Origin: a candidate division FCPU426 bacterium
GTDB taxonomy: Bacteria; Oederibacteriota; Muellerivitia; Muellerivitales; Muellerivitaceae
Direction of reading: 5' to 3'
Assembly (NCBI GenBank): GCA_963847625.1
Contig: CAWKAR010000032.1
Span: 1 to 64,000, forward strand
Length of the DNA stretch: 64,000 nucleotides
Below are positions 12,001 through 24,000 of the stretch, in pieces. The position numbers are program-made. Every line of letters starts with the position of its first letter. The first letter of the stretch is position 1.

Positions 12001-15000
12001 ATAAATTATTTCATCTATCCTTTGAGTATCATCATTGAAGTTTCGATTTTCTTCGCACAGGACATATTTGGTTGTTCCCAAAAAGAATGATTCACTAGGA
12101 GGAAGGCAAATGAAGCAATCACCTTGGATGGTCCTAGTCTTGTTTTTAATCTTGCAGTCGGTCTGGATTTCCTTTGAGGGTTGCCACAATGGGGCTTCCC
12201 CGACCATTCCTCCCATTCTTACATCCACGCCCACCAAAACCCTGACTCCAACCCCCACGTTTACCTTGACCTTGACCATTACCAACTCACGCACAAACAC
12301 TCCGACCGCCACTCCCACTCCCACAACCACTAATACCAACACCCCATGGCCGACAAATGTTCCTACTTCGACTTTTACCATTACATCTACTGATACCGAT
12401 ACTCCAACCATTACCGAAACCCCGACCAATACCAACACACAGATCTATACACCGACAGTTACCTTAACAAACACTCCCACCAACACGTTCACTTCAGTCG
12501 CACCTGCAAACTGCACCTCCACCTCCACGCCCGCCCTCATCGATGATTTTGAGGCCAACACAAGTTCCAACACGTCCATCCTACAGGATCAATGTCGCAC
12601 AGGTTATTATTTCTGGTACGGAAATCCGAGTCCGAGCGTCGTTGTTGCCTCACCCGGAACAGGATTCGCTTGTACGAGTGGAACCAGCGCCAATGCCCTT
12701 CATTATACCAGTGGACCGGTGACTGGTTATGGATCCGTTTTCGCTATTGCTTCCATTTCAGGAGGAGAACCTTATGACATCAGCAGTTTCACGGGGATTC
12801 ATTTCTGTGGAATGTTGGGAAGCACAGCCGCAGCCATCGGGCCGGGTACCCTGGAAATTGATGATGCGAGTGGCGGCAATAGTAAGTCCACGATTCCCAC
12901 TTTTACAACTTCTTGGCAACAGATCCAAATTGCCTTTCCACTCACCGGCGCAAACCTTCACCAGGTTACGACAATACTCTGGACCGATGGAACGACCACT
13001 TCCCCAGTGGACTATTGGTTAGATAACATTTCTTTCTATTAAAAAAGTTAGATGCTTCATCGTGTAGCCCCAATGACGCGCCTCCAGTTGTTGAAGCACC
13101 GATAAAGTCACTCTATAAACTCAGTTAGTTGAGGTCGTCATAGGCTTGAAGTTGCTGTTGGGCCCCATGTGGACACTTTTCGTGCCGATGTTTTGCCGAA
13201 CCGAACATTTAAATTAAGGTGGTTATGAACCAGAGAAAATATCCTATCCTCTTTCCCGTTTTTTTCGCGCTAGGGTTGTTTGCCGGTTGCGGGGCGGTGC
13301 TGGTTAATAAAGGCTCAAAGGACGAACCCCTTTCAGCCGGGTTGAAAAACCCCGAAACCACCCTGCCCAAGATCATCGTGCCGGCCGAGCAAAAGCTCAT
13401 CGGGAATTTCGAGGACGGCACGGTCCACATGAACCCCAACCTTTACGGAACCAAGGGCGCGGGCCTTTGGAGCGTCAACACCTACGGCGGAAGCACCATC
13501 AACGAGGTGTTCGTGGTTCCCGGCGGGGCCAACGGCACCAAGATGGCCGCCCATATTTTCGGTAAATTGGTGAACAAGGGAGACGGAGCCTATCCTTCCT
13601 TTCTCCTGGACGGCAAGTTCAAACCCAACGGTTACTTCGACGCCAGCCCCTTCAACGGAATCCGTTTCTATTACAAGGCGGCCTCCAGCGACCAGGCCCC
13701 TTCCAGGCGCTTTACCATCCCCATCGCACCCACTATGCCCTCCTCCGCGGGAGGAACCTGCACCGACAACTGTTACAACAATTTCGGCTGGGACCTTTCC
13801 TCCAAGGGGGATTGGGCCCTCATCACCCTTCCATTCAGCAACCTCACCCGGCAGTCGGGATGGGGAAATCCCATCACGCCGCCTGAGTTCACAGAGCACT
13901 TGAATGAGATACTGGGCATAGAGTGGTCCCATAACGCGGGCAACACCGCGGGAACTTATAACATCGATTACTGGGTGGATGAGGTCGAGTTTTTTTAATA
14001 AAAATTTCGGAAGACAAGTTCCGGGTATTGAAAAGTTGAAACTGGTTTAATTTGTTGATGCGAGGTTATTTTGATTCTTAGATTCAAGACAACATTCAAG
14101 GGCTTCCTTTTCTTAGCCCTTCTATATATAGGCCCTCTGGCTACAGGCCTTTGGGCGAATCCTTCGGATAATGTGACTTCCGACGAACCCCTTTACCAGC
14201 GCGTGAAGGCGTTGGAAGCCTACGGCCTTTTGGATTCCCAAGACCAGGCAGTCCTCGACCAGGGCCGGGTGGTGACGAAACTGGAGTTGGATTTCTTCAC
14301 GGAAAAGGCCAAGGCCAACTACCAGGCTTCCCAAGGGTTGCAGGTCGCCCTGGCGTCCCAGGCCGCGTCCACTTCCGCCTCTAAAGCTACTCCGGCTCCA
14401 ACGGCGGTAACGGCGACAACACCGGCCACGGATCCGGATTTCGTGCAAGGGTTCTCTCTTTACCAGCAAAAGCAGTACGCCCAAGCCGTTCCCAAATTCC
14501 AGGCTGTCATCCAGCAAAACCCGAATAACGCGATGGCCTACTATTACTTGGGTTATTGCCAGGTCATGGCGGGGAACACAAAGGAAGGCGCGGTGGCTTT
14601 GACCCTGTTCCTTCAGAAACAACCCAATCCTTCCATCCAGGATTACCTCACACGAGTGAAGGCCAAGCTGACGCCAGCGGACCAGCAATGGGTTGACGCG
14701 CAAACGGCCGCCACATCGAATCTAACTCAACCCGCCAACGCCGATCTCGAGCGGGAAATCAACGCACTCCTCAAGATCCTCGATGAGGAATCGGATTATC
14801 TCAAGACGAGAATGGCTTTGGACGACTACCGTTTGCAAGAACAGGAAAAGGAACTGGAGGCCTTGCAAACCACACAGGATGACGTCAACTCGGTCTTCCG
14901 GAAGTCCAACAAGTCCTCCGGCTCCCCCCATTTCACCTATACGGCGGACAACCGGACGGAAAACCTTCACCTGTCGGGCATCACCGTGGTGGGCGCTACC

Positions 15001-21000: not shown

Positions 21001-24000
21001 TTCACTTATGTCAACGCGGGCCCTTCATTTAATTTGGGGCCCTCTTTGGGCTGGGACCGGGACTTGGAAATTGGCTCCAACGTCCGTTATGAGCAAACCA
21101 CCAGCGACCTGGGGACCTTGACCAGTTCCTGGATCATCGGGGGGTTGAGGGTCGACCTTTTGCCGGTTTGGGAAATCGCCGCCGCCATCAGCCAGCAGAA
21201 CTCAAAGGGAACCGACGCAGGTTTTCAATACAAGGATAATGACGGAGTGTTTCACCAAACACTTTGGGCCCGTTATTCCTACGTGTATGACAACAAAGAC
21301 CTTGGGCATTACGCGCCTTTCACCGTCGACGGCAACATCATGAGCCTGAGGTTTTCCAGCATTATCAAGGCCAACCGCAATTCCAACATCTACTTGGATT
21401 ACGATTGGACAAAGGGGAACCTGATGCCCGGGAATCCCGTCCAAGGCACCGTCAATAATCAATTCATGGAGTTGAGTTATGAAATCCAATTTTAATAATG
21501 TACCGACCAGAGGGGACCTCCAACCCCGACCGGGGCAGGCGAAAGGAAGGGCGGCCGTGAAAAACTTGATATTGACGGCCATCAGCTTGGCCCTATTGGA
21601 ATTTTTGGCCCTGCTTACCCCGGGTTGCACAACCAAATTCCCTTCCATCACCACCATGTCACCTTGTTACCCTTATATTTTGCAGACTTTTAATAATTAT
21701 TCGGATTTAAGTAATATTAGTAATGGCGGGCAAACATTCGGAACAGGACCCGTCACTGGCGTTAATTCAGGAGTCACAGTCGTTTATTCCCTTTCGCCCC
21801 TATATGCCACTCAGGGAAATTTGTCCTTGGATGCCGATATCCTATCGGCCCCGATGACGAACGGCATGGTCGAAAATTGGAACGATAAGATATTCTTTTA
21901 TAACACTAAAAACATACCGGGAGCGAGCTGGAACGATTATTCCATGTTAATCTCGGATGTCTACATCGATGCTTCGGTAATCCAAGGGGCGGGATACCAA
22001 CAACTCCAACTTTGGGCCGACTCACCAGCAAGCAATAATTACTACCAACCCATCTGCCTCCCAAAGAACCAGCCCAACATTGCGTCCGGCCAGCAAGCCC
22101 TCACCTGGGTCATCGATTTTACAGCAGGTAAAATACCCCCTGGTTCACAACTCAGTGACATATATTTCATTCTCAACGCGAATACGACTAATGGAACGGG
22201 AAATATCTACATTGACGATATGCGGTTGGCTTATAAGGTCTGTCCGACTCCCACACCATAATTTCCCGGAAAACAGTTCGCCATAGTTTCATCCCAGGAA
22301 GTTCATATTCTACCTGTTAAAATATTTACACACGAATAACAGCGGGCCTTTCCTTGAAGGAATAAATTCTCCACTGCCTGGGATGGATATGGAGGAATTT
22401 TGAAAAATCACGCGTTTACCCGGTTTTTGCTGGTTTCCGTTATCCTTTTGCCGCTGAAAGTAATGGGCCGCGAAGGAGTTGGGCGTGAACGCATCCTTAT
22501 GGATGCGGAGTGGCGATTCCGTTTGGGAACCATCAGCGGATCGGAGATTAATAACGGCATTGTGATCACTAACTGGCGTTATCAGGGGCCCTGGAAAACA
22601 AAACCCGCCGATATTGAGAAATCCCTGGACGCCACGGGAGTGAAAACCTCCGGATCGGATTGGAAGGATGCCGTCAACGGAAAGGACCTTTTCGACAACA
22701 AACCTGGATTCGCCTTGTGCCGGGCGGTTATGCCCGATTTCCCGGGCCCCCACCGGGTGCTTCATTTCGCGGGAGTGGACGACAACTGTACCGTTTACGT
22801 TAACGGAAAAAAAATGATTTACCACGAGGGGTGGAACGACTCCTTCGACATTGACCTGGACCCGGTTTGGAAGGAAGGTGGCTCCAATGAGGCGGCGGTC
22901 CTGGTCGAAAACATCTGGGGAGGAGGAAACATTAAAGAAGCCGATCTGTTATCCCCCGACAGGGTTGAAAAAATTCCGGATGCGGCCATGCCGGGTTACG
23001 ACACTAATGGATGGAAAAAAGTCCATATCCCCCACGATTTCGTGGTGGAAGGCACCTTCGATTTCAACGCCGACGGCAGCCACGGGTTCCTTCCCAAGAA
23101 CGCGGCTTGGTATCAAAAGACCTTCGACCTTCCGATTTCGGATAAGGGGAAGGCCTTGTGGATTGACTTCGACGGCATTTACCGGGACAGCCGCATTTGG
23201 CTGAACGGCAAGTTGTTGGGCCGCCATTTGAGCGGTTACACGGGTTTCCGCTACGACATCACGCAAGCCGCCAACTACGGAGGAAAGAACATTTTAACCG
23301 TGTACGTGGATGCGCGCGATTCCGAGGGCTGGTGGTATGAGGGAGGCGGCATCTACCGCCACGTTTGGCTTAACAAAGCCTACCCCTTGCATGTGGAACC
23401 TTGGGGCGTATGCGTGGTTTCCGCTCCCAACCGGGAATCCAACCCTACCCAAGCCTCCGTCCGGATCGAAACTTCCATGATCAATGAGGCTGGAGTGAAA
23501 AAGACTTTCCGCCTTGTTTCCCAGGTAAAGGATGCTCATGGCAAGATCGTCGGCAAGCTGTCGGGGGCCAAGATTTTGGGGGCCGGTTCTAAAACCGTTC
23601 TTTCCCAAAAGATCGCCTTGGCCCGGCCCCTCCTTTGGTCGTTGGAAGACCCATATCTTTATACCCTCGAGACAAATGTCATGGTGGGGTCCGATGTGGT
23701 GGACAGCGTTACGACCCCATTTGGCATTCGTACCATCCGCTTTGACACAGGGAAGGGGTTTTTCCTGAACGGCCGGCCCGTCAAGATCAAGGGAACCTGC
23801 AATCACCAGGATTTCGCGGGGATCGGAATCGCCATTCCCGACCGTATTTTTGCTTACCGGTTGGACCGCCTGAAAGATATGGGCTCCAACGCCTACCGAT
23901 GCTCGCACAATCCCCCGGCCGCCGAATTGCTCGACGAGTGCGACCGGAAGGGCGTGTTGGTGATGGATGAGAACCGCAAGCTGGGCGACACGCCGGAAAT

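Follow-up and report, generated by a model that had tools for sequence, protein, structure and literature searches.

The locus described here encodes three large outer-membrane barrels in a row, accompanied by lipoproteins and glycoside hydrolases. This raises the question of whether the barrels hold the outer membrane to the cell wall or let sugars in, and it touches on the open question of how products of cellulose are taken up in the Cytophaga manner, without SusC/SusD. The locus lies in a window of 64,000 nucleotides (the whole stretch of DNA analysed) from a bacterium of the Muellerivitaceae. The genome-wide survey's note had described five genes in the fixed order lipoprotein-A-B-C-lipoprotein, repeated in three operons, and had read the barrels as the OmpM/SlpA-like tether/porin of this lineage, perhaps a heterotrimer. 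ORF coordinates and a genome-wide BLASTP search (12,413 genome ORFs) bear out the five genes and the three operons; genes of classes A, B and C number exactly three each, and their order is identical in all three operons. That order holds in this genome but not throughout its relatives, where the upstream lipoprotein is sometimes absent and, at one locus (L044), a GH44 gene directly precedes A instead. The genes of the window considered here are as follows.

1028..6554, minus strand: GH35 beta-galactosidase and GH29 alpha-fucosidase, with a CBM35 on each
6675..9248, minus strand: secreted GH44 enzyme
9828..11651, minus strand: AraC-family regulator, divergent from the operon (Pfam HTH_18, E 3e-21)
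12035..13042, plus strand: upstream lipoprotein, Thr/Pro linker followed by a C-terminal domain
13219/13225..13998, plus strand: lipoprotein La, lipobox Cys, short linker and a single CBM11-like beta-sandwich; putative surface glycan binder
14071..16896, plus strand: subunit A, 941 aa; signal peptide, SLH-like domain, linker, coiled coil and CHU_1276-family barrel with terminal Phe
16950..19142, plus strand: subunit B, 730 aa; SLH-like domain, coiled coil and CHU_1277-family barrel
19129..21495, plus strand: subunit C, 788 aa from ATG; SLH-like domain, coiled coil and a second CHU_1277-family barrel, sister of B, with about 22 strands and no plug domain
21479..22261, plus strand: lipoprotein Lb, probably another beta-sandwich able to bind glycans
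22400..25180, plus strand: GH2 glycosidase, immediately downstream of the operon

The B and C genes overlap by 14 nt, and the C and Lb genes by 17 nt. The linker of the window's A copy contains a TPR insert, and Lb matched no Pfam or NCBIfam family. By eye, the last strand of the C-terminal domain of the upstream lipoprotein looks like that of La.

Barrel families and their relationship to Cytophaga proteins

In the AF2 model of C (pLDDT 78.9), two SLH-like helices are followed by a disordered linker, then by a helix of 54 residues and finally by a barrel with 22 long strands by our count; helices, and no plug, lie ahead of the barrel. An alignment of B with C extends over 680 columns (P 100), and thus B probably has about 22 strands too, not the 24 or more previously proposed. 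The barrel of A could not be aligned directly with that of B or C (P<1). However, an A+B pair (doublet) is present in other families of the phylum, and doublet-A aligns with doublet-B over 635 columns (P 98.8), so that the three paralog classes of the survey's note are directly evident for B and C, whereas the paralogy of A is visible only through relatives in the phylum. Structural searches of C with Foldseek and VIA gave generic barrels (best Z 15.0, rmsd 4.5, 340 aligned), OmpM1 ranks among unrelated barrels (Z 12.8, rmsd 6.6, 257 aligned), and SlpA is absent among the structural matches listed.

For profile comparisons with Cytophaga sequences, the cluster of C. aurantiaca L103 (747, 605, 379 and 374 aa plus a 589-aa GH9) served as reference because a motif scan gave C. 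aurantiaca and 21 other records, not C. hutchinsonii; its second gene agrees by eye with the CHU_1277 stretch in a published supplement, and its fourth has all six residues named for CHU_1279 with identical numbering. In hhalign, B matched the CHU_1277 orthologue set (n=16) with P 99.9 and E 2e-31, and C matched it with P 99.6, the homology of both extending over the full barrel; the motif YGxATPNR is common to B, C and this set. A matched CHU_1276 only weakly when compared directly (P 42, E 2.6e-4), but A aligned with doublet-A (P 99.6, 708 columns) and doublet-A with the set for CHU_1276 (P 99.6, 571 columns; CHU_1276 being assigned from its place in the C. aurantiaca cluster), while the control of doublet-A against the CHU_1277 set gave P 0.6. 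At the level of sequence profiles, A is therefore linked to the CHU_1276 family through intermediates in the phylum, and the barrels are of the CHU_1276/CHU_1277 families and not detectably of OmpM/SlpA.

CHU_1276 and CHU_1277 are reportedly transporters, according to secondary statements and a paper title. Both are described as necessary for cellulose use (PMC12016534; PMC5553014), and the chu_1276-1280 cluster of C. hutchinsonii has been termed an 'atypical PUL', reported in two close relatives only (PMC12016534). As in that cluster, a CHU_1276-family barrel is here followed by a CHU_1277-family barrel and CBM-like lipoproteins, often with a hydrolase and without a SusC/SusD pair. Unlike it, every barrel carries an SLH-like domain and a coiled coil (the Bacteroidota families lack stalks), the 1277-type gene is doubled into B and C, and there are one to four operons per genome, one of them at a housekeeping site, in another phylum. 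Literature searches among open papers turned up none that links CHU_1276/1277 to SLH proteins or Goldbacteria.

Lipoproteins and genomic context

The fold predicted for La (AF2 pLDDT 88.2) has its best Foldseek matches in C. thermocellum CBM11 (6r3m, 1v0a and 2lro; E 1e-7 to 3e-7), and the top match, 6r3m, is also the entry given for CHU_1279's C-terminal domain (PMC12016534). La thus appears CBM11-like in fold and is a putative glycan binder. Its lipoprotein Cys24 is invariant (45/45 aligned); Pfam matches were weak and limited to two of the 45 members, and the lipoprotein profile matched no PDB sequence. Although La shares its fold with CHU_1278/1279, no sequence homology to either set was detectable (P<5).

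Like a SusC/SusD utilisome of Bacteroidota, the locus combines large barrels, surface glycan-binding lipoproteins, hydrolases and a regulator; unlike it, there is no plug and no SusD-family match in the operon, and an N-terminal wall-binding stalk would replace the plug. None of the 39 C members, nor A or B of the window, had a Plug or TonB-receptor Pfam match, and the whole genome has only three plug-bearing TonB receptors plus one weak match. The copies of the operon fall into two settings. In at least 23 of 40 loci the copy is a core one with housekeeping neighbours and no adjacent glycoside hydrolase, one such copy sitting between an rlmD-fusion gene and lepA, whereas the window copy and most accessory copies have a hydrolase next to them. 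Among accessory loci with scanned neighbours, 14/15 have a GH, CBM, sugar-binding-protein or galactokinase neighbour, and GH44, found beside the window copy, also flanks five others of the accessory loci scanned. Probably the core copy (rlmD-fusion to lepA) serves general sugar entry and tethering, and the extra copies are tuned to particular substrates. A LacI-like operator core upstream of La (12/29 loci vs 179/1214 control windows) was set aside, its enrichment being too weak, and a promoter/terminator scan stayed at chance level.

OmpM-like stalks with SLH motifs split among three subunits

OmpM is defined by its architecture, and that part of the earlier proposal stood: the N-terminal stalk of V. 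parvula OmpM1 was matched by the profiles of B (8bys, E 9e-7), A (8bys, E 2.1e-5) and C (8bz2, E 1.9e-4), a heptad pattern and a terminal aromatic residue occur in all three classes (Phe in 36/36 A members), and the model of C contains the coiled-coil stalk followed by the barrel. A, B and C share with OmpM1 and with SlpA of Deinococcus radiodurans a signal peptide, a single SLH-like domain, a coiled coil and a C-terminal barrel. The sequence matches to OmpM1 are limited to the stalk, and the differences are considerable: a barrel of another family with about 22 strands (16 in OmpM1, 28-30 in SlpA), a long Pro/Ala/Thr linker before the coil, an obligatory three-gene set with lipoproteins, SLH motifs divided among the classes, and a host with LolA and OmpA-domain proteins.

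Pfam SLH was matched neither in the 39 C members nor anywhere in the genome, and the SLH motifs (Trp, GIIxG, TRAE-type) are only partial. The Trp is restricted to B (33/39); the Arg/Lys is present in A (36/36) and C (39/39), whereas B has Asn at this position (38/39); the three subunits of the window show this pattern as well. In SpaA of Paenibacillus alvei the pocket's Arg, Gly and Trp each come from a different SLH domain, and three unequal motifs, one of them without Arg, form a pseudo-trimer there and in Sap (PMC6081394). By analogy, the three SLH-like motifs might jointly build one binding pocket, albeit from three separate barrel proteins and with Gly29 not conserved at its position. A CsaB-type pyruvyltransferase (PF04230) is encoded in only 8/31 genomes of the family, this one not included.

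Distribution and duplication of the B gene

The barrel families were found in 66/99 genomes of the phylum, with a copy in 31/31 genomes of the family and in the sister family, which places known CHU_1276/1277 families in another, largely cellulolytic phylum. The other 33 genomes, all with BamA (Omp85), had no match, and the system is therefore not the universal tether of the phylum. GH9 occurs in 57/66 genomes with the system and in 7/33 without it, kin not being independent; nine of the 66 have no GH9, whereas one family (f3) has it in 5/5 genomes with barrels unmatched. Searching genome contigs with B alone gave no match.

B was duplicated independently at least twice: besides the triplets described here, genome G074 has its own triplet of A and two B-type genes, and two A with one B were not seen among the loci examined. 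In 40 loci no class was absent from assembled sequence. A, B and C trees are congruent (rho 0.89-0.94), as operon linkage alone would also produce. A pair with a long unplaced branch (f12, L075) could represent a third duplication of B; the two genomes that it comes from yielded no A-type gene.

Proposed role and alternatives

Together, these results make it likely that the operon encodes a plug-less system of the chu_1276-1280 type for taking up glycans across the outer membrane, to which an OmpM-like periplasmic stalk has been added. Surface lipoproteins would keep chains of beta-glucan or hemicellulose at the pore, where secreted GH44, GH9 and GH5 enzymes would cut them; oligosaccharides might then diffuse through the barrels independently of TonB, with periplasmic binding proteins and glycosidases sustaining the gradient. 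We give about an even chance to the further proposal that A, B and C assemble into a single heterotrimer, with three coiled coils and three SLH-like domains binding the wall jointly, so that the gate would also tether the outer membrane. The repeated duplication of B and the split pocket residues suggest that an ancestral A+B pair was A:B2 and became A:B:C when a later split of B gave B and C. The heterotrimer already proposed in the survey's note thus gains indirect support from the split motifs, the repeated triplets and, to the extent stated above, the congruent trees; a complex prediction for the second operon's stalks, with a score of 0.00 and unfolded controls, was counted neither way.

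It is also conceivable that A, B and C take up glycans as separate homotrimeric or monomeric porins, co-regulated but differing in sugar range. OmpM1 and SlpA each form homotrimers (PMC10628300, PMC9388160), doublet genomes manage with two genes, and the linkers between SLH-like domain and coil vary strongly in length (class medians 65, 41 and 63 residues, range 4-220). However, a B homotrimer would have no SLH Arg and homotrimers of A or C no Trp, no operon has lost a class, and one A with two B-type genes arose at least twice, the reverse not being seen among the loci examined, which leaves this arrangement improbable.

A mainly structural OmpM/SlpA-type tether and general porin of the order, with the glycan link ancestral or secondary, would agree with the stalk matches of all three classes, the presence of a copy throughout the family and its sister, the housekeeping site of the core copy with its conserved -10-like motif (13/29 upstream regions), the failure of any Pal to reach the cut-off, and the retention of the operon without GH9 in G043 and G068. 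Yet we regard it as rather unlikely, since the barrels belong to families that are stalk-less in Bacteroidota, core copies, too, still have two or three lipoproteins of the La family, 33/99 phylum genomes have BamA and no match, and this genome encodes five OmpA-domain proteins and LolA. For these reasons, and considering the copies in hydrolase clusters and the stalk-less versions, the earlier label of tether/porin of the lineage was right about the stalk but too general. Finally, the barrels might be a platform for cellulose adhesion or for display or export of lipoproteins or enzymes and not an import pore: CHU_1277 is among the cellulose-bound outer-membrane proteins, both Cytophaga genes influence the beta-glucosidase activity associated with cells (PMC5553014), and ushers and AlgE are among the top structural matches of C, with poor TM-scores. 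Considering that growth on 0.1% glucose suffers when chu_1276 is disrupted (PMC12016534), that sugar-binding-protein and galactokinase genes adjoin accessory copies, and that no usher or POTRA domains were found, such a platform is very improbable.

Implications beyond the family

The triplets predict a single 1:2 trimer of CHU_1276 and CHU_1277, which is testable in the culturable C. hutchinsonii. The proposed division of tethering systems between Terrabacteria and Gracilicutes is also touched by the OmpM-like stalk found here in a relative of Elusimicrobia that has LolA; that division was not absolute before, as SlpA-like proteins are already listed for Bacteroidetes and Chlorobi (PMC9388160). 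More tentatively, CHU_1276/1277-type proteins might be general TonB-independent hetero-trimeric (A:B2 or A:B:C) glycan importers of cellulolytic Bacteroidota, Goldbacteria and probably Fibrobacterota, which in this family would be an obligate three-gene heterotrimer with a three-chain SLH pocket and would also act as the main outer-membrane tether of a lineage outside Terrabacteria. Atlas look-alikes of one homolog are mostly from Fibrobacterota.

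Conservation of the triplet operon

The window encodes three stalked outer-membrane barrel proteins (classes A, B and C) between two lipoproteins (La and Lb, the first and last of the operon):

13219-13998, La lipoprotein gene
14071-16896, A barrel gene
16950-19142, B barrel gene, 3' end overlapping C
19129-21495, C barrel gene, overlapping B and Lb
21479-22261, Lb lipoprotein gene, 5' end overlapping C

The triplet operon is a real, conserved system. As the genome-wide survey's note had claimed, the genome's A, B and C genes number three each and are spread over three operons (BLASTP, 12,413 genome ORFs). 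The note's statement that the B class occurs throughout the family (Muellerivitaceae, a name taken from the note) and its sister family is borne out by B-class genes in all 31 genomes of the family and in the single sister-family genome. Among 40 loci fetched from these families (two from this genome itself), A-B-C order is listed in 35, two stop at a contig edge after B, and in three the missing gene was concealed by the ORF filter and is placed at the expected site by other searches. At least 23 of the 40 are core copies, with an rlmD-fusion gene and/or lepA alongside, and 16 are accessory copies. A GH, CBM, sugar-binding protein or galactokinase gene lies beside 14 of the 15 accessory loci whose neighbors were picked for Pfam (57 proteins), and the window copy is surrounded by GH35, GH29, GH44, AraC and GH2 genes (Pfam). 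The A, B and C trees are congruent over 32 loci (15-17 of 19-22 supported splits common; rho 0.89-0.94); a single clade takes in 10-11 of the 13 accessory copies.

Several features of individual copies were also observed. The core operon of this genome is preceded by a 1,381-aa ORF (L001:790-4935 = G000:C39:55789-59934), whose residues 1-480 form an RlmD/TrmA-type RNA methyltransferase and whose remaining approximately 900 residues contain a membrane segment and match no Pfam family; this long form is repeated across the family and sister family (1,240-1,541 aa where complete). A conserved motif resembling an extended -10 box, TTTTAGTAAAAT, precedes La in 13 of the 29 upstream regions, each belonging to a core copy (loci L001, L038, L048, and L054 among them). 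In the accessory copies of genomes G048 and G049, the A gene is split or in-frame stops occur (L051:5932-8830; L023 = G049:C52), reflecting either decay or assembly error.

Stalk, barrels and relationship to the Cytophaga cluster

Pfam detected only a TPR insert in the window A protein and a weak coiled-coil match in C. Profiles of B (E 9e-7), A (E 2.1e-5), and C (E 1.9e-4) all match V. parvula OmpM1 in its N-terminal stalk, in agreement with the OmpM-like stalk proposed earlier; the proteins share the architecture of OmpM, and their sequence matches to it are confined to the stalk. The proposed layout is likewise seen in the AlphaFold2 model of C (39-sequence alignment, pLDDT 78.9), which has SLH-like helices (54-94), a disordered linker (96-135), a helix (137-190), and then a barrel in which we counted 22 long strands; its structural matches are generic outer-membrane barrels. 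The alignment of B with C spans 680 columns. Direct comparison of A with B/C finds the stalk alone in common. The TPR module of window A lies in its linker (window 14440-14640; residues about 124-190), is missing from the genome's other two A paralogs, and has a close relative in a TPR at G000:C50:92184-93701 (71% over 93 aa).

Searching 1.84 billion representatives with the C profile yielded 502 proteins (E<=0.001), many of them stalk-less and of about 570 aa, and motifs of this stalk-less family are present, by eye, in the printed first part of C. hutchinsonii CHU_1277 (supplement of PMC5553014). A short-motif scan yielded 22 records, including C. aurantiaca DSM 3654, whose genes of 747, 605, 379, and 374 aa plus GH9 match chu_1276-1280 and provided the reference cluster; the six aromatic residues that have been named for CHU_1279 are all present in its fourth gene, at the same numbering. 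In profile comparisons, the CHU_1277 orthologue set was matched by B (P 99.9, E 2e-31) and C (P 99.6, E 1e-23). A matched the A-like genes found in other families of the phylum (P 99.6, E 8e-25), which in turn matched the CHU_1276 set (P 99.6, E 5e-25) and, as a control, not the CHU_1277 set (P 0.6); A compared directly with the CHU_1276 set reached P 42 only. La has a predicted fold resembling C. thermocellum CBM11, with 6R3M as top match, the structure to which the CHU_1279 C-terminal domain is likened in the available text of PMC12016534.

Judged from these profiles, the system is homologous to the atypical PUL of Cytophaga; we consider it probable that it represents a chu_1276-1280-type glycan gate that has acquired an OmpM-like stalk and carries its second barrel in duplicate. 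It likely also works as that PUL does. The accessible parts of PMC12016534 describe chu_1276-1280 as induced by cellulose and required for its use, chu_1276 disruption as impairing low-glucose growth, and SusC/D homologs as dispensable; CHU_1277 is tied to cello-oligosaccharide assimilation in those of PMC5553014. What this analysis adds is the triplet form, the evidence of independent duplications, the division of SLH motifs between classes, and the distinction of core from accessory copies.

Distribution and tether role

Among 99 phylum genomes, 66 have a 1277-type and 64 a 1276-type gene, and the barrel system is unmatched in 33; Omp85 is present in 98, including all of these 33. Genomes from outside the window's order usually have an A+B pair with lipoproteins behind it; the pairs are mostly stalked (that of genome G021 seems to lack stalks) and adjoin GH9, GH2, GH31, or binding-protein genes. 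GH9 occurs in 57 of 66 genomes with the system versus 7 of 33 without, although related genomes do not count as independent cases. The barrel family is seldom met in Bacteroidota: apart from the centre genome, 2 of 250 sampled genomes have it. In the Atlas, B's nearest cluster is mostly Goldiibacteriota and clusters nearest to homolog P0089 are mostly Fibrobacterota, both serving as leads only; according to the consulted portion of PMC7031533, Goldbacteria abound in CBM11 and GH5, 8, 9, and 44, and have Elusimicrobia as a neighbor.

The genome encodes BamA, LpxC, LolA, five OmpA-domain proteins, and three plug-bearing TonB receptors; searches of it gave nothing above cut-off for Pal and no Pfam match for SLH. 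We take the host lineage to belong to Gracilicutes. OmpM is reported absent from Gracilicutes in the sections available of bioRxiv 2021.05.31.446380 and PMC10628300, and SlpA-like proteins are listed in Bacteroidetes and Chlorobi in those of PMC9388160. The earlier proposal of a tether/porin of the lineage is too broad; because of the 33 genomes without the system, it cannot be the general tether of the phylum. A tether role of the core copy is plausible given its universality in the family and the conserved -10-like motif.

Do the three barrels form a heterotrimer?

In the tree, B groups with C as its sister clade, apart from both the B-like genes of two-barrel families and CHU_1277 (support 0.99-1.0). 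Genome G074 has one A-like and two B-like genes, and the latter cluster together (0.97, with homolog P0117), implying a separate duplication independent of B/C. Both results fit an ancestral A:B2 trimer. In SpaA, a single pocket is built by Arg, Gly, and Trp of three different SLH domains (available text of PMC6081394). Here, B alone has the SLH Trp (33/39), which does not rank with the more frequent residues of A or C; Arg/Lys occurs in A (36/36) and C (39/39), and B carries Asn at the Arg position (38/39); B-like genes of two-barrel families mostly keep Arg (16/18) and often Trp (8/18). On the other side, Gly29 is not conserved, a pyruvyltransferase occurs in just 8 of 31 family genomes, and the congruence of the trees is explicable by linkage alone. 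On balance, we give assembly of A, B and C into one heterotrimer an even chance.

Additional observations

In this phylum, FlgD-Ig-like domains often form the end of secreted proteins, suggesting that a sorting tail of the T9SS-like kind exists outside Bacteroidota. Three 580-800 aa proteins (loci L120, L122, and L123) join FlgD-Ig and OmpA domains, two of them with a PorV/UPF0164-like N-terminus. The window also contains two head-to-head 276-aa ORFs (27395-29052), the first IS3-family transposase-like by eye, adjoining a Fic/DUF4172 gene (25359-26468). Locus L113, from a record titled Bifidobacterium breve MAG, is probably mistitled, since it carries a Bacteroidota-type chu_1276/1277 pair whose start sequence is nearly identical to those of L102 and L117. 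A Flavobacteriales MAG (G101) has four 1277-type genes (L139-L141, L098), with 1276/1277 pairs in three fetched loci; one adjoins glucosamine-6-phosphate deaminase-like genes, and such neighbors hint at chitin or amino-sugar substrates.
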